From NCBI GenBank assembly GCA_030587475.2, contig JAUQYZ020000230.1:1-64000 (forward strand): DNA of 64,000 bases. Reading direction: 5' to 3'. The first letter of the stretch is position 1. Every line of letters starts with the position of its first letter. The stretch comes from Candidatus Sigynarchaeum calidifontis. GTDB lineage: Archaea > Asgardarchaeota > Lokiarchaeia > Sigyniarchaeales > Sigyniarchaeaceae. The position numbers and the translations under genes are program-made. Positions 44,595-62,200 of the stretch are shown piece after piece. The notes below the pieces were generated by a model, which was given only the letters and a program-made list of their open reading frames with translations, had not been told where the DNA came from and ran no database searches.

Positions 44595-44708
44595 CGCGGA
44601 GGGAGGGGTTCGAACCCTCGCAGGATGTGGATTTTTGCGAGAAAGCCTCGCAGAACATTCTCCCACGGACTTAGCAGGCCCGCATCGTAACCACTTGATT
44701 ACCTCCGC
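44595..44708 (-). tRNA. tRNA-Ser(GCT) with a 46-nt variable region (possible non-canonical intron)
   Basis: Acceptor GCGGAGG/CCTCCGC plus G73; D-arm ATC-AAGTGGTTAC-GAT; anticodon arm CGGGC-CTGCTAA-GTCCG; T-arm GAGGG-TTCGAAC-CCCTC; CCA not encoded. Confidence 0.9.
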
Positions 44709-47386: not shown

Positions 47387-47866
47387 CTATGCCTTATCGT
47401 GATGGTGTTGGTCGTCATGTCTATGCTCCTTCTCATCGCCCGCGTCGCCGCGCGGGAACACGTACAAAGGCACGAGCTCGCAAAATAAAATGCCCTTTAT
47501 GGCCTTGACTTGCTCGACGAATGACAAGACGCTCGTGACTTCACCCCGCAATGCGATTACTTCAGAACAGTTCTCCTCGGAAACATGGACATGCATGGTC
47601 GAGTAGATATGGATGCCGGCGTTGTGTTCGATCTCGGTGAGCTCATCGAGGAGGCCTCTCTGGTGATGGTTGAACGCGATGACGAGGAACCCGTCCTCGA
47701 ATGTATCTGGCCGGAGCGTCGCCTCCTTCTTCAAGAACTCGCGCAAGGCATCCCGCACCACCTCGGACCGCTTGGCACCTTTTTCCTTGCAATACTTCTC
47801 CAGCTCCGCTAAGAAATCCTTCGGGATCGTGATCGTGACGCGATCCATGTCCTTATCTGAGTACAT
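47387..47866 (-). CDS. nikR: Nickel-responsive regulator NikR with a His-rich tail
   Basis: RHH domain RVTITIP...RSEVVRDALR; Ni ligands IEH, MHVH and ENCSEV; tail EHRHDDQHHHDKA. Confidence 0.92.
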   Translation of the reverse strand: MYSDKDMDRVTITIPKDFLAELEKYCKEKGAKRSEVVRDALREFLKKEATLRPDTFEDGFLVIAFNHHQRGLLDELTEIEHNAGIHIYSTMHVHVSEENCSEVIALRGEVTSVLSFVEQVKAIKGILFCELVPLYVFPRGDAGDEKEHRHDDQHHHDKA

Positions 47867-48308: not shown

Positions 48309-48336
48309 GTAATACTTTATTCCAAAGAAGTATGAG
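48309..48336. promoter_or_regulatory. Putative NikR operator overlapping the start of the ECF S-like gene
   Basis: GTAATAC-N14-GTATGAG; same 7-14-7 geometry as the sites at 48979 and 55703. Confidence 0.6.
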
Positions 48337-48961
48337 CAACGACTTCGCAAGCAAAAGCACCTTGTATGTTAACGGTGAAATCGATACATCGATCATTTCT
48401 GAAAATGACCAAAATACCAATCGAAAATCCAAGGATATCGCCTTGATCGCGATCTTCTCTGCAATCCTTGGCATATTAGCAATTTTTGCATGGATCGTGC
48501 CGTTCAGGCACATCACGATGGAATTTCTCATCAACGTGGTCGTTATCTTGTTATTAAAGATTGCCCGACGAAAGGGCACCTTGTTTTTCACCGGCCTGAT
48601 CACGGGATTCATCGATTTTTTCGCGGGATTGTCTGGCCCTGGCGGGTTTCTCGCCCCGATTGTCTACGGCTTTAAACTGGGCTTTTTAGAATCGGCAAAT
48701 CACTATTATAAAAAACCGCGCCATAGGAACGCGATGCTCATCGTGGTGAATTCAATTGGATATTTTCTCACGGGAACTTTGATCTGGATAATGTACACGG
48801 CACTATTCATTCCTCTTGGGACCGAGTCCACGCAAAAGATGTGGTTCGTGTTGACCCTCGCGGGTGCGTTGATTTGCATCCCCGCTACCGTCTTCGCCAT
48901 AAATATATATGATAGGTGGTTCAAGCCGCACGCTCGGATCCTCATGCAAACGAAAACGTGA
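48332..48961 (+). CDS. ECF-type transporter S-component-like membrane protein
   Basis: KDIALIAIFSAIL first helix, RRKGTLFFTGLI, about six TMs, about 200 aa. Confidence 0.65.
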   Translation: MSNDFASKSTLYVNGEIDTSIISENDQNTNRKSKDIALIAIFSAILGILAIFAWIVPFRHITMEFLINVVVILLLKIARRKGTLFFTGLITGFIDFFAGLSGPGGFLAPIVYGFKLGFLESANHYYKKPRHRNAMLIVVNSIGYFLTGTLIWIMYTALFIPLGTESTQKMWFVLTLAGALICIPATVFAINIYDRWFKPHARILMQTKT

Positions 48962-49060: not shown

Positions 49061-51070
49061 GTGACGCACTATAAAACCTTCCCGTTCAGCGCCATCGTTG
49101 GGCAAAACGACATGAAGCTCGCGCTTATCTTGAATGCTATCAACCCGAAGATCGGCGGGGTTTTAATAAAGGGTACCAAGGGTACTGCAAAATCTACGGC
49201 GGTACGAGCACTTGCCGACTTGCTACCCGAGATCCGGGTCATCAAAGACTGCCCGTTCAATTGCAATCCTGAAAGCATCAAGGAATCTTGTCATACCTGC
49301 CAACACAAGCTAGAAGCTGGGGAAATAACTGAAAAGGATATAGAAACGAGAAAGATGCGCGTTATTAACCTCCCCATCAATGCGACAGAGGATCGCGTCG
49401 TTGGTACCATAAACATCAAGGAAGCATTGTCGACAGGACTCAAAGCGCTTGATCCAGGAATCCTTGCTGATGCGAACCGGAATATTCTATATATCGACGA
49501 GGTTAACTTGCTTTCGGATAACGTGGCCGATATATTGCTCGATTCCGCTGCGATGGGTATCAACATCATAGAACGGGAAGGGATATCTCTCCATCATCCG
49601 TCAAACTTCATCTTGATAGGGACCATGAATCCCGAGGAGGGAAACTTGCGCCCGCAATTGCTCGACAGGTTCGGACTCGGTGTAGAAGCGGAGATTATAA
49701 CTAATATCCCAGACCGGGTCGAGATCGTGCGTCGTTCCGAGGAATACCATGCGGATCCCTCCACCTTCTACGAAAAATACGATGCAAAACAGAACGCCCT
49801 TCGCAAGCAGATCGTTGATGCACGTGCTTTATTACCCGAAGTACGCATTCCAGACGAGCTTCTAGAAAAAATTGCATCGGTTTGCGTGGCATTCGAGGTC
49901 GACGGACACCGGGCCGACATAACGATAAATGCAGCGGCGAAAACGCTAGCCGCTTTCAACGGGCGACGCGAGGTCTCGATCGAGGACGTGAAACATGCCA
50001 CGCGGCTAGCATTGATGCACAGATTACGTCGCCTTCCATTCGAGGATAAGAAGCTAGACGTCCATAAAATCGACGAGTTACTGGATAAACCCGAGCATTC
50101 TGGGGGGCCAGACCCGTCGGACGAGGGAAATCCCAAAATCGATAAAAGCGATAAAGAAGCGGGAAAACGCCAGGTCGTTAACCAGCGGGAAACGACCTTC
50201 AACATCGGCGTTGGCATGAATGCAGATAAGGTGATCCATTTGCATAAAACCCGTGAATTGATGAATGCATCGGGGCGCATCGTCCCGCACCCGACGAACG
50301 ACAAGCGTGGTGCCCAGTCCGGGATCGAGAAGCCTCGACGTAGCATCAACATGCCAACATCGAGCGATGTCGCTATCTTGCCCACGATCAACGAGGCCGT
50401 GTTGGATCCAGAGAACCAGGCGTCTGTAAAAGCTGGCGGTTCCATTAATGTTGGCGAGAACCACATTCACGTGAAGAAAAGATCGGGAAAATCGAGCTAT
50501 GCCATTATTTTTTGCGTCGACGCGTCGGGATCCATGGGCGCGGAGAACCGGATGGAAGCTGTTAAGGGTGCGATCTTCACCATTCTCCAAGGAAGTTACG
50601 TCCGGCGGGATAAGGTTTCCCTCGTCGTGTTCCGGCAAGACAAGGCCGAAGTCGTATTGCCACCGACCCGGAGCATCGATCTCGCGTTCAAAGTTTTGAA
50701 GGAAATTCCAACGGGCGGTACGACCCCCTTGGCTGCGGGTTTGCTCAAGGCAATCGATGTCGCAGCCGAGGAGAAACGCAAAGCTACCGGCTATATCCCC
50801 TTGATCATTATCATCACCGATGCCCGGGCGAACGTGTATGTTCACGACGCAATTGATGATGCTAAAAAAGTCGCGAAATACATTGCGGAGCAAGGCGTGG
50901 AGACAATCGTGATCGACACGGAATCACCAAGCTTGAAACTTGGTCTTGCGAGAGAAATCGCCGATGCAGCGAATGCCACGTATTATCCCATAGACCAGTT
51001 TGGAAAAGACGAGATCCGGAACGTGCTCCACGCGGAAGGCTTGCTCGAACCGATGACAAGCGAATCCTAA
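49061..51070 (+). CDS. chlD: Class I chelatase AAA+/vWA subunit (ChlD/BchD-type, with ChlI-like ATPase domain)
   Basis: [44 protein letters not shown]; vWA motifs DASGSM, GGTTPL and ITDARAN. Confidence 0.92.
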
Positions 51071-51086: not shown

Positions 51087-54000
51087 ATGCCTTCCAATCT
51101 CCGAGTGAACAAGAAACCATCCGTCGTCATAGTTTCCTCGATGGTATGCACCCGGAACTTGATCGACGCAGCTGCCACCGTTCGAGAGCAGCTGGGAAGC
51201 GTGTTTGATATTTCCGTTTTTTTCGTGAACGATGTCGAAACAGGAGTCGTTTCTAAATCAACATTCGTTACTGCCATTCATGATGCCAATGTCTTGATGA
51301 TCGACATTCGCGGGAACAATCTCGCCGCGGAACTCATCGTTGAAACCTATGAGGCAATGGAACGCGATGAACCAGCTTTGTTCAAGGAAAAAAGCATCGT
51401 TTCGCTTGTCGGGGGCAATGAGGAAATCAGGCGCTTGACCAAGCTCGGGCCTTTTATGGCCCGATCTATCCCATCGAAAAAGAAAAGCGAGTTGGGGATG
51501 GACGGTATTCCAGATCTTTCGGATCTCGTCAAGAAAGGCATACGGATCGGGCAAATGATGAAGTCCGCGGGAAAATACTTGCCGGTCGGTTCGCTCAAGC
51601 ACGCGCGCAACTGGATGCTGCTCATGGATTATTGGGCTTATGGCCACGCGGGCGTTCGCCAGAACCTCGAGAACATGTTCAAGCTGGTCCTCCGAGACTA
51701 TCTTGGCCACGAATACCTCGAGGTGCCCGAGCCTCAGAAATTCCCTCCTATCGGTATATACGACCCTCGTGACAATCGATATTATGCATCCACCGAGGAG
51801 TACCATCGCGCCCACGTTCCCGACCCCACCAAGCAGACCGTCGGTTTCTTCTTTTATGGGGGTATTTATTTCGAACAGACGCTGCCCGTGCTGGAATCAT
51901 TCATGGAAAAGCTATCAGATTACAATCTTATTCCCGTATTTTCGGAATCTTTGGAAAATATCCACGCGCACGAGAAGTTTTTCTTTAAAGATGGCGTGCC
52001 GATCGTCAACGCTGTCATCAACCTTCAATATTTCCAGATAAATGGTGGTCCATTCGGAGGTGACAATGCGCGCACGCTTGCATTGTATCGGCGGGAAAAC
52101 GTTCCACAATTTAATCCGGTAATTTTATTTGACTCGAAAAGAGAAGAATACGAAGCCTCCACGAAGGGTACTATCCCGATCAACCAGGTCATCGCTGTAG
52201 TGATGCCCGAGCTCGACGGCCGGATCGAGATGCTCGCGGCCGGAACAATGCAAGACAAGGGGATTCCTGATGGAGAACAGCTTCCCGTTTTGGAAGTCGG
52301 TCCTATCGAGGAAAACATCACCATCATCGCGAAGCGGGTCAGAAAATGGCTTGACCTCCGTGCAAAGTCAAATAGTGAAAAGAAAATTGCCATAATCCTC
52401 TATGATTATCCTCCTGGTGAAGCAAAGCTCGCGAGTGCTAGTTATTTGGATGTTCCAAGTTCCATCAAACGATTGCTAGCTTTGCTCGCACGCGAGGGAT
52501 TTATTACTTTCCCCTTGCCTGATGGAAAGGAAATTCAAGACATTCTTATGGAATCAGGAGCCATCAACTCCCCGAAGCACGTAGACGTGAAGGATTACAA
52601 GGGCATTTCCATCGATGCCCAACAATATAGCGAGCTCCTTGCATCGTTACCAAGCGAGACCCGCCAACGTGTCATCGACGCATGGGGCCCTCCTCCTGGT
52701 TCCATCATGGTCAAGGATGGCCGCATTCGTCTTCCCATCTTGCAATTTGGTAATGTCTATATTTGCTTGCAACCAGCCCGCAGCGAGGTGACTGGGGATC
52801 CGGTCGAATATCATGACAAAGATAAACCTCCCCATCACCAGTATGTCGCGTTGTATCGATATTTGGATGAGGTCGTCGATGTCGACGCCATCATCCATTT
52901 CGGTACCCATGGAACTCTTGAATTCTTGCCCGGGAAGGAATGCCTCGGCAACGTGAGGGATGATAACATTGCACTGCTCGGGCGGATCCCGAACATCTAC
53001 ATCTATCACGTGGGTAACACGAGCGAGTCAGCCATCGCGAAGCGACGTTCGAACGCGGTCATCATCAACCACGCTGGTCCAGCGTTCGAATCCTATAACT
53101 TGAATCCAGACTTGCTCCAACTAGAAGACCTGGTGAACGAATGGCAAGACGCGCGCTCATCGAACGGAAAACAAGATGAAGGATTGCTCGATAACATCCG
53201 AGAGATCGCTCGAAGAATAGGCATCGAATACTCATCGATGGCGGAACTGGAGGCGTTGATCCCCCGGTACAAGCTCGCGGCAGTTCCGATCGGCCTCCAC
53301 GTGCTCGGGGAAACGTTCACGGTCGGAGAACGTAAAAAATTAATCACGCGTGCACTTCTAGACTCGGTCGAAGCCCCAACCGCGATAGACGCCGTGATCA
53401 ACAGGTTTGGTAAGAATGAGCATGCCGTGTTGCACGAGATCGAGCCCGTGGTCGAATCGATCATCACCAACAACATGGCTCCACCAGGTAGCAAAGGATA
53501 TACAGAGATGGCGAAAAAACTGGGAATTGGGGAAAAGGATCTGGAGCAACTAGCAAGATGGGTCGCAGATCTGTCGGCACGCATGGAAGATTCCTACGAG
53601 GAACGTAATATCATCCGGGCCCTAGAAGGCGGGTATATCGAACCTGGATTCGGTGGAGACCCCATCCGTACCCCCTCGATATTCCCGACGGGGCGAAACT
53701 CGTTTGGTTTTGATCCACGCTTGATCCCGAGTTCCATCGCTTTTAAGCGCGGCGAGGAAATCGCCAATCGCCTTCTACAGCAGTATAAAGATGAGCATGG
53801 CACGTGGCCAGAGACGACAAGCGTTGTCCTCTGGGGTTTCGAGACCATGAAAACTGGTGGTGAAACCGTCGGGCAGATATTTAGTTATATGGGCGTTAAA
53901 CCCGTCAAGAAGAAGTCAGTATGGACGACCGAGCTCGAAATCATCCCGCTCGCCGAGCTTGGTCACCCGAGAATCAACGTGGTCGTGACAATCTGTGGTA

Positions 54001-54863
54001 TTTTCCGAGATACGTTCCCGTATATCCTTGATCTGATAAACCGGGCCATCGAGCTGGTCTCGAACCTGGACGAACCTGTCGACCAAAACTACGTGAAAAA
54101 AGCCACGCTTGATCTCGAAGCCCGGCACGTGCAACATCCGATTGCACGCATCTTTGGTCCATCGCCAAGTAGGTACAACACGAACATCACGGAGATCATC
54201 AATGCCGGCGCCTGGAAAGAGGAAGGAGAACTAGCGACCAATTACATCGAAACGATGGGATTCGCCTACTTGAAAAATCAAGAGGTCGAGGCCGCAAAGG
54301 ACGCGTTCGCAGCCCAGGTGACCCGCATCGAGCTGTTATCACAAGTTCGCGATAGCAACGAATTCCACGTGACCGACTTGGATCATTATTACGAGTTCAC
54401 CGGTGGCTTGGCACGGGCCCGCGAGCATCTCGCGGGCTCTAGGGCAAGCGTCTTTATCGCAGACACGTCACGGAAGCGGATCACCGTCGAAACCATTGAC
54501 AAGAGCATTAACGAAGGTGCGGTGACCAGGACACTCAATCCCACGTGGATCCACGGGATGCTCAAGCACAAGCACAGCGGCGGGCAGAAGATTGCTGAAC
54601 GCGTCGAGAATTTTCTTGGTATGGCTGCCACGACCCATGAGGTTAGCGAATGGATCTGGGACAAGACATACGCGCAGTACATCGAGAACGAGGAGATACG
54701 AGCCGCGTTGATCGAGAACAACCGGTTCGCCATGATGGACGTCGTGAAGACCATACTGCAAGCCAGCCAGCGAGGTTACTGGAACGCGAGCGACGAGCAG
54801 ATCGACACGTTGAAGAAATTATATCTGGAAATGGAGAGTTGGCTTGAAATCACGTATCAATAG
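51087..54863 (+). CDS. Class I chelatase large subunit (CobN/ChlH family)
   Basis: MPELDG, YDYPPG, PPHHQY, HFGTHGTLEFLPGK, PTGRN, VLWG.ET, GIFRD, TDLDHYYE and LNPTWI.GM motifs. Confidence 0.95.
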   Translation: MPSNLRVNKKPSVVIVSSMVCTRNLIDAAATVREQLGSVFDISVFFVNDVETGVVSKSTFVTAIHDANVLMIDIRGNNLAAELIVETYEAMERDEPALFKEKSIVSLVGGNEEIRRLTKLGPFMARSIPSKKKSELGMDGIPDLSDLVKKGIRIGQMMKSAGKYLPVGSLKHARNWMLLMDYWAYGHAGVRQNLENMFKLVLRDYLGHEYLEVPEPQKFPPIGIYDPRDNRYYASTEEYHRAHVPDPTKQTVGFFFYGGIYFEQTLPVLESFMEKLSDYNLIPVFSESLENIHAHEKFFFKDGVPIVNAVINLQYFQINGGPFGGDNARTLALYRRENVPQFNPVILFDSKREEYEASTKGTIPINQVIAVVMPELDGRIEMLAAGTMQDKGIPDGEQLPVLEVGPIEENITIIAKRVRKWLDLRAKSNSEKKIAIILYDYPPGEAKLASASYLDVPSSIKRLLALLAREGFITFPLPDGKEIQDILMESGAINSPKHVDVKDYKGISIDAQQYSELLASLPSETRQRVIDAWGPPPGSIMVKDGRIRLPILQFGNVYICLQPARSEVTGDPVEYHDKDKPPHHQYVALYRYLDEVVDVDAIIHFGTHGTLEFLPGKECLGNVRDDNIALLGRIPNIYIYHVGNTSESAIAKRRSNAVIINHAGPAFESYNLNPDLLQLEDLVNEWQDARSSNGKQDEGLLDNIREIARRIGIEYSSMAELEALIPRYKLAAVPIGLHVLGETFTVGERKKLITRALLDSVEAPTAIDAVINRFGKNEHAVLHEIEPVVESIITNNMAPPGSKGYTEMAKKLGIGEKDLEQLARWVADLSARMEDSYEERNIIRALEGGYIEPGFGGDPIRTPSIFPTGRNSFGFDPRLIPSSIAFKRGEEIANRLLQQYKDEHGTWPETTSVVLWGFETMKTGGETVGQIFSYMGVKPVKKKSVWTTELEIIPLAELGHPRINVVVTICGIFRDTFPYILDLINRAIELVSNLDEPVDQNYVKKATLDLEARHVQHPIARIFGPSPSRYNTNITEIINAGAWKEEGELATNYIETMGFAYLKNQEVEAAKDAFAAQVTRIELLSQVRDSNEFHVTDLDHYYEFTGGLARAREHLAGSRASVFIADTSRKRITVETIDKSINEGAVTRTLNPTWIHGMLKHKHSGGQKIAERVENFLGMAATTHEVSEWIWDKTYAQYIENEEIRAALIENNRFAMMDVVKTILQASQRGYWNASDEQIDTLKKLYLEMESWLEITYQ

Positions 54864-55004: not shown

Positions 55005-55373
55005 TTATCCGATGATGACTTGGGCTTTTTTTGCCTTACTTGGAATCTTGACCAACATCGCCGACACGATGACGATTATTGCCCAGACACCAACGATAGC
55101 AAATAGCATCGATGTTCCGAGCGTTGCCATCTCATAGAACATGACCGCGGCATCCGCTGGATCATTCATTGCAGTCAAGAACGGAAAGAAGGGAACAATT
55201 TCTTGGTGGGCAACATGTTCTAGCGCAAGCATGATGACCCCGCCCCAGAGTAACAGGCTGAGAACCCCCAACTTGTATTTATCTATCACTGATTGTTTTC
55301 CCACGCGTCGGAGGGTAATATCGATAGGTATCAAGACGATGGCTAATGCCATCGGAACAAGAAAGCAGGCCAT
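55005..55373 (-). CDS. Uncharacterised small membrane protein (MACFLVP... LWGG...EH family)
   Basis: Three TMs; LLWGGVIMLALEHVAHQEIVPFFPFLTAM. Confidence 0.8.
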   Translation of the reverse strand: MACFLVPMALAIVLIPIDITLRRVGKQSVIDKYKLGVLSLLLWGGVIMLALEHVAHQEIVPFFPFLTAMNDPADAAVMFYEMATLGTSMLFAIVGVWAIIVIVSAMLVKIPSKAKKAQVIIG

Positions 55374-55379
55374 AGTTGT

Positions 55380-55688
55380 TCAGCTCCGTACATGTTGCAT
55401 TTTTACTTTGGATACGAGGACTGCCAATTCCCAAATTGCAAAAACGGGGATGAGCATCGAGATACCGAGGATAAATCCATCCGCAATCAGACCATCTGTC
55501 GTGAATTCAATAAACGGGCTGGCGAAATCATATCCCCAAATATGATCGACAAGTATCATCACTGATGCACCCCATAGCATAACCGCTAACCAATCGAGCT
55601 TATACGTCTTCGGATTTGGTAAAGCAAGGTACACGGCTGTGACTGCCAAGGCAGCAATCAAGGTCGTTATGAGCCACACGTTTTTCAT
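55380..55688 (-). CDS. Uncharacterised small membrane protein (LWGA...DH), related to its downstream neighbour
   Basis: Three TMs; YKLDWLAVMLWGASVMILVDHIW parallels YKLGVLSLLLWGGVIMLALEHVA. Confidence 0.8.
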   Translation of the reverse strand: MKNVWLITTLIAALAVTAVYLALPNPKTYKLDWLAVMLWGASVMILVDHIWGYDFASPFIEFTTDGLIADGFILGISMLIPVFAIWELAVLVSKVKMQHVRS

Positions 55689-55700
55689 CTCGGAGAAGGG

Positions 55701-55732
55701 GAGTATTACGTCCCGTGAAAATCGTAATACTC
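55701..55732. promoter_or_regulatory. Perfect inverted repeat, putative NikR operator
   Basis: GAGTATTACG-N12-CGTAATACTC (core GTATTA-N16-TAATAC; compare E. coli GTATGA-N16-TCATAC), starting 13 nt upstream of the ATG at 55688. Confidence 0.75.
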
Positions 55733-56413
55733 ACGGTCTTCCAAGTTCCGTTCCAATTTAAAATTATAGATCCTCTGCCCAGTTCTCTTGCCTTCGATCG
55801 ATCTCACGAATACCCGGATCAAGATGCTGGCGCCGTACATCAACACGATCACGGGAGACATGATAACTGCCTATTGAATCCGGGAACGTTTTCATTTTAT
55901 GAACCCATTTTCGCTCTGGATCCGCGCACGATAAATTCGGTTAGAGATTGTCTGTAAGCGATTGCAAAAACCGGGAAAATGGTCATTCAAACCACTTATG
56001 ATCTTCAGATCATCGACGCGACCTATGACCGTTCTTCATTTTTTAACACGAATTCCCATCTCGTTGTATATAGAATTACACGTGACATTTTGAAGAATCC
56101 AAAATTGTTCATAAGCATAAAACTTGTTGAAAAACATTATTCCAATTATCACGAAAAATATTATGGCCGGGTTAATGCTATCACGTTCATTTTCACCTAT
56201 GAACATCTTTTTTTCTTGAGAGTGCACAAATTGAATGGCATCCCGCATAAACGAAGGTTTTACTTCCCCGTGTCGAAGATTATCGAAGAAAACTAATTCG
56301 GTAATCAAAATGGATATATGGACTCCCTCCTTTTGTGGACAAAAACCACTTGCGGTCGGAATCATTCTTGCACGGCACATAGCAATCCTTATATTTGAAG
56401 CCGGGGGCTGGAA

Positions 56414-56959
56414 ATGCAAGAAACAAGACGGGAACTCGCGAAAGAATCCTATCTTTCCGAGGTTGCTTCGATCATCATCAATATTTTTGTCGGGCTCTGT
56501 TTAACGTTGTTGATCTTGCCGCGACAGAGTTTCGGGCAGATCGTGCTCATGGTACCCGCCATGATTTCGACGAGGGGAAACATTTCTGGATCTTTTTCTG
56601 CGCGCACGGCTCGCGATCTGGTCATTGGTTCCTTCAGGCAAAACCATCACGAGAATATCTTATCCACGGTCGTGCTTACCATTGTCACAAGCGAGGTGAT
56701 CGGTGGCTTGAGCTTGTGCATCGCCCTTTTGCTCAAACCAGGCTCTCTTTTACCCGTGCATTGTTTTTTATTGCTTCCACTCATTACCATGCTTCTAACC
56801 GTAGTGGTATCCATCCCGATTTCCACGGGCTTGAACACCATCGCTTTCAAGAAGGGGTTGAACCCGAGTAACGTGGTCCCACCAATCATGACCAGCGTGG
56901 ACGACATTCTCGTGGTCGTGAACATGTTCATCGCTCTCGTAATATTGGGGGTGCCTTGA
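56414..56959 (+). CDS. MgtE/SLC41 integral membrane domain protein (half 1)
   Basis: PAMISTRGNISG...AR and GLNPSNVVPPIMTSVDD motifs. Confidence 0.85.
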   Translation: MQETRRELAKESYLSEVASIIINIFVGLCLTLLILPRQSFGQIVLMVPAMISTRGNISGSFSARTARDLVIGSFRQNHHENILSTVVLTIVTSEVIGGLSLCIALLLKPGSLLPVHCFLLLPLITMLLTVVVSIPISTGLNTIAFKKGLNPSNVVPPIMTSVDDILVVVNMFIALVILGVP

Positions 56960-57513
56960 TGCTGTCCTATTTTAAAAAGATCGTCCGAGAATCGAGCGGC
57001 GTGCTGATCGCTTGCACGGTCATCACGATGGTGTGCGGGATTGCTCTTTCCGAGAGCGATGAATTGCTCTCTGCTATCCCTTTTCTCGTCTTGATCATGC
57101 CCGCCCAGAATGACGTCGTGGGTGACATGTGCCAGGTGCTCGTGGGCAGGCTGGCTTCGCATCTCTATATTGGGCTCGTTCCAGCACGGCTGTCGTTCAC
57201 GCCTCGCGTCCGATACGATTTCCAGTCTCTTTTCGTGGCATTGTTGTTAAGCGTATCGACCTTGCTCGCGGTGAACGTGATCGTTGCCACGATTTCCGGG
57301 ATCGAGTTCGGTAACTTTTATAAAATCATCTTCGTCGTCTTCACCGCTGCCACCTTGTTATTTTCCATCATGTTCATCGTGCTCTTCACCGGTGCTATTT
57401 ATATCTTCAAGCATAACAAGGACCCGAACAATTTTTTAATCCCGATCACGACTTCATTGATCGACACGCTTTCTCCCATCTTCGTAGTATTGCTCGCGAG
57501 TATCGTCTTGTGA
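56956..57513 (+). CDS. MgtE/SLC41 integral membrane domain protein (half 2)
   Basis: P...DVVGD...GRLASHL and DPNNFLIPITTSLID motifs. Confidence 0.85.
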   Translation: MMLSYFKKIVRESSGVLIACTVITMVCGIALSESDELLSAIPFLVLIMPAQNDVVGDMCQVLVGRLASHLYIGLVPARLSFTPRVRYDFQSLFVALLLSVSTLLAVNVIVATISGIEFGNFYKIIFVVFTAATLLFSIMFIVLFTGAIYIFKHNKDPNNFLIPITTSLIDTLSPIFVVLLASIVL

Positions 57514-57541
57514 AACATGCGGGCGTGGAGGCACACGAGAA

Positions 57542-58786
57542 ATGTCCAAATTAAAGAAAAAATTCAAACCAGCCCCGATATCCCTCAAAGAAATATTGCA
57601 CGAAATGAAGACGAGCGTCGACGTCATGTTCGACCTTGCCTTTAGTGCCATCCTTTTCCAGAGCAAGGAAATCACGGAAGAGGCTGTAAATATCGACGAT
57701 CGCGTCCACGAGCTAACTGACCTGCTTGGCTACCAAGTCCTTCAAGCCAAGATAGGCCATTTTTCCGAATCGCGCAAGCTGGAGCCCGTCATCACGCTCG
57801 GCTATGCCATTGACAAGATATCCGAGGCACTTTCCGACATCGCGAAAGTCGTGCGCTTGAATGGCCACCTCGCGCAATTTTTCCAGCTTTGCTGGAAGGC
57901 TGATCCTGAACCCATCATCAAGGTTGCCGTGTCCAGTGAGACCGCTTTCTGTGGCAAGAAATGGGACGACATCCCGTTCAAGGCGGATTACGGCGTGGAT
58001 GTCATTGCCATCTACCATGAGAAAAAATGGATTTTCGATGAAAAAGCGATCATCAATAAGGGAGACATCCTCATTGTTTCGGGGGAACTTCCTGCACTCG
58101 CCGAATTCAAGAAGATCTGCAAGAGCGAAGAACCCATTTCCTTCGACTTGGAACGCAAGCAACCGATCGACTTGTTCGATCCCAACGACGAAAAAACGAT
58201 GGCAGTCGTTAAGCGCTTGAAGGAAAATTACGTGAGAATCACTGATATGTCGGAAACGATAGTTGACCTCGCTTTCGCGTCATTATTTTTTGGCAATCTC
58301 GAGATTGCCGAGGATGTAATAGATCAAGAACATTTCATAGATAACTTGATCGTTGATTTGGAGCGAGACATACTCACGCTTGCAAAAATGATTCCCGTGC
58401 CGGAGCGCCTGCTTGGACTCATGCGCATCGTGTTCTCGTGCGAGCTGATCTCCGACGCGGCTTCAAGCATCGCCGAAAATCTCCTCAAGGGATTTGAGCC
58501 CCACGAGGTGATCGTCGCAGCGTTTAGCGAGGCCTGGGATGTCGCCGTTCGGGAGGTCTTGGCGCCCGGTTCATTCCTCAAAGGAAAGACCGTCGCGGAG
58601 GTACACGTGCCAAAGCATTCCAAGGGTTTTCATATCATCGCCATCAAGCGAGACAACGACTGGATCTACGACATCAAGATGGATTTCAAACTCCGCGCAG
58701 GAGACATCGTGATCGGCATCGGTCCCAAGGAACAGATCAATTTCTGGCGGACGCAAGTCAATCCAAATGCCGATGTGGATGATTGA
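57542..58786 (+). CDS. PhoU + TrkA-C (RCK_C) tandem-domain protein
   Basis: Two repeats of a PhoU-like MK....MFDLAFSA...E.ISD segment, each followed by RCK_C (G.DVIAI...W...GDILI). Confidence 0.85.
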   Translation: MSKLKKKFKPAPISLKEILHEMKTSVDVMFDLAFSAILFQSKEITEEAVNIDDRVHELTDLLGYQVLQAKIGHFSESRKLEPVITLGYAIDKISEALSDIAKVVRLNGHLAQFFQLCWKADPEPIIKVAVSSETAFCGKKWDDIPFKADYGVDVIAIYHEKKWIFDEKAIINKGDILIVSGELPALAEFKKICKSEEPISFDLERKQPIDLFDPNDEKTMAVVKRLKENYVRITDMSETIVDLAFASLFFGNLEIAEDVIDQEHFIDNLIVDLERDILTLAKMIPVPERLLGLMRIVFSCELISDAASSIAENLLKGFEPHEVIVAAFSEAWDVAVREVLAPGSFLKGKTVAEVHVPKHSKGFHIIAIKRDNDWIYDIKMDFKLRAGDIVIGIGPKEQINFWRTQVNPNADVDD

Positions 58787-59514: not shown

Positions 59515-60933
59515 CTATTTTTCCCACAAGTAAATACATTTTCTCACCTCCTCCTTTCCGAAAGCACCCATCTGCTGGCTGCTATTTCCCTTGCCTGTTG
59601 GCAATTTGTCAATCTTCTTTAATCTCAGCCCCGCTTTTAGTGCAAACTCCGTGAGGATTAGATCAACTGGAATTACAACACCAGCAAATCGAACATTATC
59701 GTTTACATAGTAGATTTTTCCAGAGGTTTTCAAAACCCGAGCAAGTTCGAACATTATAAACGCGTGTTCGAGGAAATAATTATAGATCAATCTGAGAACA
59801 TTTGGATTATTTAACTGCTTTTTCGCTTTCAGATCTTCAAAATGGGAGATGATTGCTTTTAAAACTTCATTATTCTGAAATGTATTCAATGCTTTATTGA
59901 AAATTTCCATTTTATTGTTTTGAACATATATATTCTTGATGAAATCGAGCTTCTCTTTGTTTTCTACAGTACATGATAAGAGATTCTGCCTCAAGGCACT
60001 CAAAGCACTCTCATCGACTCCTAGAAATGCCAGTTCTAGGGCATACACTCTTGTATAATCGTACCTGTTCAAGTAAGGTGGAGATGTAATGATCAAATCG
60101 ATGGAACCATCTGGAATCGTCGGCAAGATCTGAAAATTTGATCCATGCTTGAGTTCCATTGAGTTTAATTTCCCTTTATTATGTACTGAATAGAATGATT
60201 GCAGATCCTCGATCATGCATGCAATTTGCGTGTACAATGCCTTTTCAAAGTCAAGTATTTTATTCTTGGTATATTCTGCCTTGGGTTTTCCAGATCGAGT
60301 ATCCCATCGTAAGAATTGTCCTGCTTTTTCAGTATAACTAACTTTTTCAAGAATCGATAAACAAACGAATTTAAGAATTTCTTGTAATGCCGGATCAGTT
60401 ATCACGTTTTTTATGTAAAAACGAAATGCGTTGATTTTTCTTTCTGTTTCAGGAGAAAAAGCCTTATCAGTAATTCTAACATGCTTAAAATTGGTCTCCT
60501 CGGATATTGGCATCTCCGCGAAATTTAGATCCTTTATTTGTCTTAGCAACCCCTTTAATACTTCTACGTCCATTTGTTCCGCTAGTAATCGAGCCTTAAA
60601 TACAAATGGTCCCACGGGTAGCAATTCAATCCCAATTGAATCAAGCCCTCGCTCACGAGCACAGAATAACGTTGTACCAAGACCTGCAAAGGGATCAAGT
60701 AAAACGCCGTTTGTAATGCCCGAATCTGTAATAAGATGGTTTACAAGTTTTGATGAAAAACCCTCTTGATACCTGTACCATCTGTAAAACGGCGCATTTT
60801 TATTTGCTTGTGAACTCACAAGTTGGCGATTTAGATTTGCATTTAAATGAATGAAATCCTGGTACCGGTCCTCCATCTCTTTGAGTAAACCTAAAAGGTG
60901 ATCGGAAACTTTAATATCGCTCGAGGTTTTCAT
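59515..60933 (-). CDS. Alpha-class N4-cytosine DNA methyltransferase (AT-rich, apparently orphan)
   Basis: Motif I DPFAGLGTT precedes the catalytic ITSPPY; C-terminal GKGNSSQQMG recalls the M.AvaI/M.BsoBI-like family (from memory). Confidence 0.88.
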   Translation of the reverse strand: MKTSSDIKVSDHLLGLLKEMEDRYQDFIHLNANLNRQLVSSQANKNAPFYRWYRYQEGFSSKLVNHLITDSGITNGVLLDPFAGLGTTLFCARERGLDSIGIELLPVGPFVFKARLLAEQMDVEVLKGLLRQIKDLNFAEMPISEETNFKHVRITDKAFSPETERKINAFRFYIKNVITDPALQEILKFVCLSILEKVSYTEKAGQFLRWDTRSGKPKAEYTKNKILDFEKALYTQIACMIEDLQSFYSVHNKGKLNSMELKHGSNFQILPTIPDGSIDLIITSPPYLNRYDYTRVYALELAFLGVDESALSALRQNLLSCTVENKEKLDFIKNIYVQNNKMEIFNKALNTFQNNEVLKAIISHFEDLKAKKQLNNPNVLRLIYNYFLEHAFIMFELARVLKTSGKIYYVNDNVRFAGVVIPVDLILTEFALKAGLRLKKIDKLPTGKGNSSQQMGAFGKEEVRKCIYLWEK

Positions 60934-61117
60934 CTTGAAGCACGAAACGACGATCGATAAAACGCGATCGTATAAGTAGTTGAAGAATTCATAGATAATA
61001 ACCCGTGTTTAATGCCACGGTATTAACCAACATGACATTCTGTCATTTGGCAAATCATAATGCTAAGCATGGCAGAACATCATTATCATCAATCATCAAG
61101 CAAAGCATGTTCCATCT

Positions 61118-62200
61118 ATGGTTGGCCTTTCCTATTGTGACTTGTTCTGCGGCTGCGGCGGGTTCAGCGCCGGTTTTAAGGAGGCCGGTTTCCGGCCGCT
61201 CGGCGGCATCGATATGGACAAGATGGCGTGCGAGAGCTATAAAATAAATATCACGGGACGCGTTCGGAACGAGGACATAACCGGGGTGTTCGGCCTCGAT
61301 TTCGCGCGGTGGCTCGGCGAGCGACCCGACATCGTGCTGGCATCGCCGCCTTGCGAGGGGTTTTCCGACGCGAACGTGAGCCGGATCGATGACGCGTGGG
61401 ACCGGCTATATAATCCTCCCGGCTCGCTCACGATCGAGGCCATCGACTGGATTTGTGACCTCGATCCGAAGCTTGGCTTCATCATCGAGAACGTTCCCGC
61501 CATCGGCGAAGGGGCTCTTGCAGGATACATCGCTGACGAGTTGAAGCGTATTGGGTATAGCAAAGTATACTTCAACATGATCCGCGCCGAGCGGGTGGGG
61601 TCCCCCTCGAAGCGCCCTCGATTGTTCATCAGTAATATGAAATTCGAGGAGCCTCCCGAGATCCCCGCATACAACCGGTTCAAGAGGACAGCACTCGATG
61701 CGGGGAATGGTGATGTGAATGCCGGAGCGAGTGATGACTCGCAAGGCGAAGCCGGGATCGATGCCGGTGGCGCCGAAGAATCCTGTTATAGCCTCGTGAC
61801 CGTGATGGATGCCCTTGCCGACTTGCCCGATCCTACCGCCATTCACGCCATCCCCGACCACGAACCCGCACCGATCTCTGCGACGCGAGAGAAAGAGATC
61901 GCGAACCTCAAGTGGGGCAAGTCGCTAATGCAGTTCGAGGGATCGAATGGTACGATGAAGAACACGTGGATCCGGGTGCATCCGTTCGATATTGCCCCGA
62001 TCTTGATGGGTAAATCCACATTTATCCACCCGTTCGACAACCGGCAGCTCACGATCCGGGAATACGCGCGGCTTCAAGGTTTCCCAGACACGTTCTTGTT
62101 CTGCGGCGGCTTTTCCGAGAAGAAAAACCAGATCGGCGAGGCCGTCTCTCCCCTCGTGGCGTATTATCTCGCGCGGGTGATCGCGGACAAAACCACGTGA
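61118..62200 (+). CDS. C5-cytosine DNA methyltransferase
   Basis: DLFCGCGG, SPPCEGFS, IENV, R.RLF, RLQGFPD and QIGEAV motifs. Confidence 0.92.
   Translation: MVGLSYCDLFCGCGGFSAGFKEAGFRPLGGIDMDKMACESYKINITGRVRNEDITGVFGLDFARWLGERPDIVLASPPCEGFSDANVSRIDDAWDRLYNPPGSLTIEAIDWICDLDPKLGFIIENVPAIGEGALAGYIADELKRIGYSKVYFNMIRAERVGSPSKRPRLFISNMKFEEPPEIPAYNRFKRTALDAGNGDVNAGASDDSQGEAGIDAGGAEESCYSLVTVMDALADLPDPTAIHAIPDHEPAPISATREKEIANLKWGKSLMQFEGSNGTMKNTWIRVHPFDIAPILMGKSTFIHPFDNRQLTIREYARLQGFPDTFLFCGGFSEKKNQIGEAVSPLVAYYLARVIADKTT

Follow-up and report, generated by a model that had tools for sequence, protein, structure and literature searches.

A survey published in 2024 names only NiCoT, UreH, HupE/UreJ, NikABCDE and NikMNQO as nickel importers (PMC11247825), and genome surveys have long encountered organisms in which nickel enzymes are not accompanied by any recognisable nickel transporter (PMC2667541). 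Nickel operons can be repressed by NikR, the operators of which consist of two 7-bp half-sites in a 7-N13/14-7 layout, with the consensus GTGTTAC-N13/14-GTAACAC in Deltaproteobacteria and GTATGAT-N13/14-ATCATAC in enterobacteria (PMC545781). Here, we describe a pair of genes, A and B, which stand behind a putative operator of this layout in a stretch of 64,000 nucleotides from the Asgard archaeon Candidatus Sigynarchaeum calidifontis (positions 1 to 64,000 of contig JAUQYZ020000230.1, assembly GCA_030587475.2), hereafter termed the window. The two small membrane proteins encoded by this pair very probably have a function linked to nickel, and the reading that we favour as the probable one is that they constitute a stand-alone nickel importer, that is, a NikR-repressed uptake permease made of two subunits.

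The A–B gene pair and its putative operator

Gene A (55380–55688, minus strand), the first of the pair, encodes a protein of 102 residues, and gene B (55005–55373, minus strand), which lies downstream of A after a gap of 6 nt (55374–55379), encodes a protein of 122 residues that starts with MACFLVP. Both products are three-helix membrane proteins and are paralogous to each other, with 31% identity over 74 residues (BLASTP, E = 2e-8). The AlphaFold2 models of B and A, with mean predicted local distance difference test (pLDDT) values of 89.6 and 81.6, respectively, each display three long helices arranged as a membrane bundle. The motif YKL..L..(M/L)LWG...M...(D/E)H is common to the two proteins and corresponds to YKLDWLAVMLWGASVMILVDH in A and to YKLGVLSLLLWGGVIMLALEH in B. 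Protein A contains MLWGASVMILVD, with its LWG-x7-D stretch located in helix 2; B carries the sequence EHVAHQE, which forms a cluster of glutamate and histidine residues (E52-H53-x2-H56-x-E58) at the outer end of helix 2. An earlier note on this DNA had reported a perfect 10-bp palindrome directly upstream of a two-gene operon with a 6-nt gap, the products of which were described as paralogous proteins with three transmembrane segments and a shared motif, one of them starting with MAC; the palindrome, the gene pair and the motif are all present as described.

The perfect 10-bp inverted repeat, which we read as the NikR operator of the A–B operon, spans positions 55701–55732 (no strand assigned) and stops 12 nt before the ATG of A (55688). 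Its arms, GAGTATTACG (55701–55710) and CGTAATACTC (55723–55732), are complementary at 10 of 10 positions and are separated by a spacer of 12 nt. Since about one perfect 10-bp inverted repeat with a spacer of 0–20 nt is expected by chance per 64 kb (64000 x 21 x 4^-10 = 1.3), the palindrome alone is unremarkable. Its core, GTATTAC-N14-GTAATAC (55703–55730), consists of two 7-bp half-sites in the layout of NikR operators, each of which agrees with the deltaproteobacterial consensus (GTGTTAC/GTAACAC) at six of seven positions and shares its first four bases with the enterobacterial one. This exact 7-14-7 pattern occurs once in the 4.99-Mb source genome (89% complete), and a generalised box scan, in which the half-sites GTRTTAC or GTAAYAC were accepted in either orientation with a spacing of N13–15, yielded only two half-site pairs with zero mismatches in the whole genome. 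Two other candidate 7-14-7 sites in the window, at 48309 and 48979, fail the generalised scan at up to one mismatch and were not counted.

A TATA-like, AT-rich element, TATAATTTTAAATT on the gene strand (55755–55768, minus strand), is located about 30 nt upstream of the putative operator. From the usual archaeal spacing between TATA element and start, we infer that transcription begins at or just before the operator, which would thus be positioned at or just after the transcription start. The presumed regulator of the operon is encoded by nikR (47387–47866, minus strand), 8 kb from the operator. Its product displays the Pfam domains RHH_1 and NikR_C and is the single NikR_C match found in the genome, and its four high-affinity nickel ligands (His/His/His/Cys) align with those of H. 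pylori NikR. The nikR gene is divergent from a gene encoding a 209-residue protein without a Pfam match (48332–48961), which is followed by a ChlI/ChlD fusion (49061–51070) and by a 1258-residue CobN/BchH-like subunit (51087–54863); a class I chelatase thus neighbours the sole nikR of an Asgard genome (47387–54863). On contig C232 of genome G000 (locus L090), the 8-mer of the window's half-site, GTATTACGG, is present in four copies at 1406–1480. These copies stand upstream of an open reading frame (ORF; 1522–1836) for a 104-residue ribbon–helix–helix (RHH) protein with a weak match to NikA-like mobilisation proteins, and may be a second target of NikR or, alternatively, iterons belonging to a different RHH protein.

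Family, conserved residues and predicted topology

Relatives of B number more than 1400 at 90% clustering, and an exhaustive search grouped the family into 558 clusters at 50% identity, distributed over at least 556 species genomes. The archaeal carriers include Bathyarchaeia, Thermoplasmatota, Halobacteria, Altiarchaeia, Woesearchaeota, Methanomethylicus and Asgard archaea, and the bacterial ones comprise many rumen and gut Clostridia, spirochaetes and one Kiritimatiellae metagenome-assembled genome (MAG). Cultured organisms such as Ruminococcus albus, R. flavefaciens, Pseudobutyrivibrio ruminis and Anaerovorax odorimutans are also among the carriers. A comparative set of 80 loci from other species, amounting to ~660 kb, was assembled for the analyses that follow.

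Genes of type A were scarcely detected by a word search, and a profile search was used instead, by which an A-type gene was found to adjoin B in 76 of the 80 loci, in either order or in divergent orientation. In addition, seven clusters (P0158, P0172, P0174, P0186, P0192, P0196 and P0264) are natural single-chain fusions of B and A, in which the A-part is devoid of its first helix, giving five helices in all, and Lys and Arg are abundant in the linker, in keeping with a cytoplasmic loop. A further candidate fusion, P0136, obtained in a word-based search for longer homologues, proved to be an over-extended ORF call and was rejected. Taken together, the adjacency of the two genes and the existence of natural fusions argue that A and B act as one complex.

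The residues invariant in B are Met1, Ala2, Cys3, Phe4, Trp43, Glu52, His53, His56, Glu58, Pro64, Glu81, Gly86, Met89 and Trp97, and those invariant in A are Leu6, Gly40, Asp48, Leu74 and Trp86. Cys3 is present in 125 of the 125 B-family representatives whose match begins at model position 1, and residue 2 of B is always small (Ala, Gly, Ser, Thr or Cys). In both proteins, Lys and Arg are concentrated in loop 1 and in the C-terminal tail, and loop 2 is acidic and nearly free of them. Because of this distribution, both proteins are predicted to have the N-terminus outside and the C-terminus inside, which would place the N-terminal Cys, the Glu/His cluster and the Met/Glu-rich loop of B on the extracytoplasmic side. 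The loss of exactly one helix of A in the fusions is what this topology requires. The invariant polar residues, namely Cys3, Glu52, His53, His56, Glu58, Glu81 and the methionines of B and Asp48 of A, map to the outer face or to the outer half of the membrane.

Neither protein has a Pfam match at E ≤ 0.1 (CbiM/NikM, NiCoT, HupE/UreJ and ECF_trnsprt included) or an NCBIfam match, and profile searches of PDB sequences with the A and B alignments returned nothing at E ≤ 10. In the ESM Atlas, only clusters of 'hypothetical protein' were retrieved, none of them with a Pfam family. A Foldseek search with the B model gave no match at E ≤ 0.001, and the best VIA-align Z-score for this model, 6.7, was to generic helix bundles. 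The prediction of an A–B complex from the family alignments scored 0.12, and no inference was drawn from it. No description of the family was found in the searchable literature, full text included, and the reviews and surveys consulted, the latest from 2024, name no importer of this kind.

Nickel context of the pair across genomes

The genes neighbouring the pair within 5 kb were clustered across the 80 loci. A nikR gene is present in eight of them, in seven cases divergent and 44–439 nt upstream of the pair and in one case downstream. UreG/HypB recurs in eight loci, LarC in seven, UreC and UreF in six, UreD and CooS in five each, LarB and HypF in four each, UreAB in three and LarE in two, with representatives of CooS, HypB, LarC, LarB, LarE and HypF clearing the NCBIfam cut-offs. 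Overall, at least one nickel-linked gene lies within 5 kb of the pair in 29 of the 80 loci, and a nickel gene, a NikR box or both are found in 39. Apart from ATP-binding cassette (ABC) genes of urea and other transporters, no further family recurs beside the pair in these loci, nor does an MgtE cluster.

Application of the generalised box scan to the same loci, with up to one mismatch allowed, revealed 21 NikR-type sites, of which 15 are no more than 300 nt away from the A/B pair. Of the other six, five directly precede a B or A gene that the crude gene caller had overlooked, which brings the number of sites at the pair to 20 of 21 (binomial p = 4e-18). These boxes belong to 17 loci, corresponding to 16 of the 31 archaeal loci and one spirochaete. 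The spacer of the box frequently contains a TATA-like run, so that NikR, if bound, would cover the promoter.

In the Asgard relative G199, a member of another family, three half-sites 21 bp apart lie upstream of the A gene. The A/B pair of this genome (locus L089, contig C160, 463–2522) is divergent from a CbiM/NikM gene (1800–2522), and NikR-like boxes precede both units (1156–1204 and 1742–1769), which suggests that two distinct candidate importers of nickel belong to the same regulon. A run of N occurs in the stretch with the A gene, and one TAA was counted within the A-region match there. In another Asgard relative (G221, locus L087), the N-terminus of the B homologue reads MGCF in place of MACF, and a NikR-type box was not seen upstream of it. 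Three Ruminococcus loci (L036, L037 and L075) share a conserved palindrome, AGCCAA-N11-TTGGCT, about 49 nt upstream of B and between cooS and B, which may be the operator of another regulator in these bacteria devoid of NikR.

An Rfam scan of 13 bacterial loci identified no riboswitch near the pair, and these loci therefore give no sign of the metal-induced control that is usual for exporters. Neither B12-related genes nor a B12 riboswitch were seen in the neighbourhood and Rfam scans; cobalt specificity was rejected on these grounds, the link being to nickel.

The distribution of other importers was also surveyed. The host genome encodes two [NiFe] hydrogenase large subunits, LarC and carbon monoxide dehydrogenase (CODH)-type genes, and a screen for three importer families found no CbiM/NikM, NiCoT or HupE/UreJ in it. 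Among 44 other carrier genomes, CbiM/NikM scored above the cut-off in four, and NiCoT and HupE/UreJ in none. NikR is encoded in 15 of 17 archaeal carriers. In an order-level sample of 151 genomes, taken from the order of R. albus, the pair is found in nine genomes and CbiM in 29, with no overlap, and one or the other is present in 23 of the 41 LarC-positive genomes compared with 15 of the 110 LarC-negative ones (p = 4e-7). These figures agree with an analogous role of the pair but do not prove it.

Several further features of the window deserve mention. On the other side of the operator, a gene cluster divergent from the A/B pair and separated from it by a spacer of 725 nt (56414–58786) encodes MgtE split into two genes of about 180 residues each and then a protein in which PhoU and TrkA-C domains each occur twice. 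At 44595–44708, an Rfam match of 114 nt and 51 bits to transfer RNA (tRNA), not called by ARAGORN, probably marks a tRNA that contains an intron or an insertion of unusual length. Finally, a gene for an N6/N4 DNA methylase-like protein (minus strand) lies beside a C-5 cytosine methyltransferase gene (plus strand) at 59515–62200, followed by two ORFs without a Pfam match, and this region may be a restriction-modification or defence island.

A probable nickel importer, its alternatives and its known counterparts

The earlier note had proposed that the pair is a candidate heterodimeric Ni/Co permease that is unlike NikM/CbiM, NiCoT, HupE or NikABC and stands behind a NikR-type site. The assignment of the site has been strengthened by its 7-N14-7 layout, its single match in the genome and the boxes at the pair in 17 other loci, and the heteromer by the adjacency and fusion of the two genes; dissimilarity to known Ni/Co transporters is borne out by the lack of Pfam and NCBIfam matches and of PDB relatives. 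Homologues retain the candidate metal ligands, with Cys3, Glu52, His53, His56, Glu58 and Glu81 of B and Asp48 of A being invariant, as well as a metal-regulon context at nearly half of the other loci. Two parts of the proposal stand only in restricted form: the acidic residue of the shared motif is invariant in both families but the histidine in B only, and the metal suggested by the gene context is nickel and not cobalt, with import as the presumed direction.

In the mechanism that we propose, A and B would form a heteromeric inner-membrane nickel-uptake permease of about six helices, probably with 1:1 stoichiometry. Ni(II) would be captured on the outside by the N-terminus of B, through its amine and the thiolate of the Cys, together with the Glu/His cluster and the Asp of A, and would then pass along Met, His and Glu ligands between the subunits into the cytoplasm. 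A dedicated ATPase would not be needed; the driving force would come from the membrane potential and from proteins such as HypB, UreG and LarC, which would act as sinks for nickel in the cytoplasm. The proposed capture site and ligand path are based on the conserved residues and on the side of the membrane at which these lie. When nickel is plentiful, Ni-loaded NikR sitting on the operator at the transcription start would shut the operon off. The direction of transport, the stoichiometry and the energy source are parts of this proposal.

A bolder suggestion, which we regard as rather doubtful, is that the pair represents a new class of transporter, an ATP-independent nickel channel-permease of two three-helix subunits in which the Ala-Cys N-terminus of B is the Ni(II) site. 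Removal of Met1, which the invariably small residue 2 would permit, would leave B with an N-terminal Ala-Cys, the amine, amidate and thiolate of which could provide a Ni(II) site on the outer face. Ni-superoxide dismutase, with its nickel hook, and the amino-terminal Cu- and Ni-binding (ATCUN) motif, with Cys replacing His, would be the nearest parallels to such a site. On this view, the capture chemistry of B would be one so far unseen in any importer, and the pair would be the main entry route for nickel in many rumen Clostridia, Thermoplasmatota, Bathyarchaeia and some Asgard archaea.

A number of observations weigh against a NikR-repressed nickel importer. No nickel context was found at 41 of the 80 loci, and the pair occurs in only three of the 41 genomes searched in the order of the host, the host included, a patchy distribution that suggests horizontal transfer. 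NikR was found in none of the 28 bacterial carriers, and the nickel link of the bacterial members therefore derives solely from gene neighbourhood; moreover, several of the archaeal boxes are direct and not inverted half-site repeats, at which NikR binding is putative. His49 of A is not conserved, being replaced by Ala in bacterial members, and no recognisable energy-coupling partner was found for A and B. The pair coexists with NikM in four of the 44 other carrier genomes, and in G199 it adjoins the CbiM/NikM gene; the 40 carriers without CbiM/NikM, NiCoT or HupE/UreJ were identified by a screen confined to these three families, and ABC importers of the NikABCDE type may be present in them. 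In the 151-genome sample, neither the association of the pair with LarC (p = 0.06) nor its exclusion of CbiM (p = 0.21) is significant alone, and the genome statistics draw on related genomes, which are not independent, and on many incomplete MAGs.

The alternative that survives best, itself unlikely, is that A and B form a split S component of an energy-coupling factor (ECF) transporter, which would dock on EcfT/EcfAA' encoded elsewhere and be driven by ATP like NikM. Six helices in total are what a typical S component has, the outer N-terminal metal-ligand motif recalls the one reported for NikM/CbiM, and group II S components are typically encoded by stand-alone genes with substrate-specific control. 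A match to EcfT/CbiQ is present in 32 of the 45 carriers, among them the host and every tested Bacillota genome. It was, however, not found in the other 13, mostly archaeal MAGs the incompleteness of which may explain some of the cases. In addition, neither protein is similar to CbiM or ECF_trnsprt at E ≤ 0.1, and ECF genes do not recur beside the pair in the 80 loci.

A role in nickel physiology other than import, for example efflux or detoxification, a membrane store or chaperone for maturation proteins, or a sensor, is likewise improbable. The nickel link is strong, yet it does not fix the direction of transport, and a size as small as that of A and B would be unusual for a transporter; in G199, moreover, a complete NikM gene beside the pair already offers a route of import. 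Against export speaks the position of the operator at the TATA box or transcription start, which by the logic of NikR (PMC545781) implies that the genes are silenced when nickel is high, whereas an exporter would have to be expressed then, and the NiCo riboswitch that might have been expected for an exporter was not found in the 13 bacterial loci. Any function other than import would also leave the 40 carriers without CbiM/NikM, NiCoT and HupE/UreJ in need of another route for nickel uptake.

That the pair is an accessory to another cation transporter, such as the split MgtE in the window or NikM elsewhere, is very unlikely. Its divergent arrangement with the split MgtE and PhoU/TrkA-C genes here and with CbiM/NikM in G199 would fit such a role, for which NikN, NikK and NikL are precedents as small accessory subunits (PMC545781), but no transporter family recurs beside the pair in the 80 loci and 40 of the 44 other carriers are devoid of NikM. 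Least credible of all is a reading in which the proteins are unrelated to metals and the palindrome arose by chance, forms an RNA hairpin or serves a different RHH protein as its site. In its favour, about one such repeat is expected per window, sites within two mismatches are no commoner genome-wide than in the control, and iterons made of the 8-mer GTATTACG precede a different RHH gene on contig C232, but the clustering of 20 of the 21 boxes at the pair, the many direct repeats, which are unable to form hairpins, and the occurrence of nikR in eight loci and of nickel-enzyme genes in 29 near the pair all argue against it.

Should the pair indeed import nickel, the family would partly close the gap left by organisms that contain nickel enzymes without a recognised transporter, since its carriers include ureolytic and CO-metabolising Clostridia of the rumen and gut and several uncultured archaeal phyla. 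A and B, with about 100–120 residues per subunit, would then form the smallest nickel importer known, and the pair would lend itself well to work on the selection of a metal ion and its passage across a membrane. The annotation of nickel metabolism in metagenomes, encompassing urease, hydrogenase, CODH and the lactate racemase cofactor, would also benefit.

The closest described counterparts are the NikR-repressed nickel operons, such as nikABCDE of E. coli and nik(MN)QO and nikKMLQO of Deltaproteobacteria, which have the same operator architecture as the A–B operon, with 7-bp half-sites 13–14 bp apart, a nearby NikR gene and linkage to hydrogenase, urease and CODH, and the same logic as predicted for A and B, import being switched off at high nickel (PMC545781). 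The proteins, in contrast, are unrelated, the pair being without binding protein, ATPase, CbiM/NikM, CbiQ or CbiO, and many of the archaeal boxes are direct, not inverted, repeats. The CbtA/CbtB system, listed in PMC2667541, resembles A and B in being a small two-gene membrane system predicted by comparative genomics to import a transition metal; it is tied to B12 riboswitches and cobalt and its subunits are unequal. A and B have no match to the Pfam families CbtA or CbtB.

NiCoT (HoxN and NixA; PF03824), HupE/UreJ (PF04955) and UreH share with the predicted A–B permease the lack of a dedicated ATPase, the placement of their genes in or beside urease and hydrogenase clusters and the presence of His and acidic residues in helices. 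They are, however, single polypeptides of six to eight helices with signature motifs of their own, and no similarity to A or B was detected. NikM/CbiM (PF01891) and B have in common an invariant extreme N-terminus at the outer face that probably serves as a metal ligand; in the structure of NikM2, the N-terminal amine and His2 reportedly bind nickel. NikM is one chain of seven helices with the motif Met-His, whereas the pair consists of two chains of three helices with the motif Met-Ala-Cys, and the two show no sequence similarity. Both are enriched in LarC-positive genomes, without overlap in the 151-genome sample.

In architecture, an analogy may be drawn with MerT, a mercury-uptake protein with three helices and a Cys pair, and with Ctr1, the copper-uptake protein, the three-helix subunits of which carry an outer N-terminus rich in Met and His. 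In these systems, subunits of about three helices form a ligand-lined path along which a soft metal ion moves without ATP, after capture by outer N-terminal residues. Homology to these proteins is not detectable, the metals that they carry are others, and Ctr1 is a eukaryotic homotrimer, whereas A and B would form a heteromer of two paralogues. The kind of system that the pair probably represents, a NikR-controlled nickel importer, is a known one; its protein family is entirely new and its architecture is unusual.

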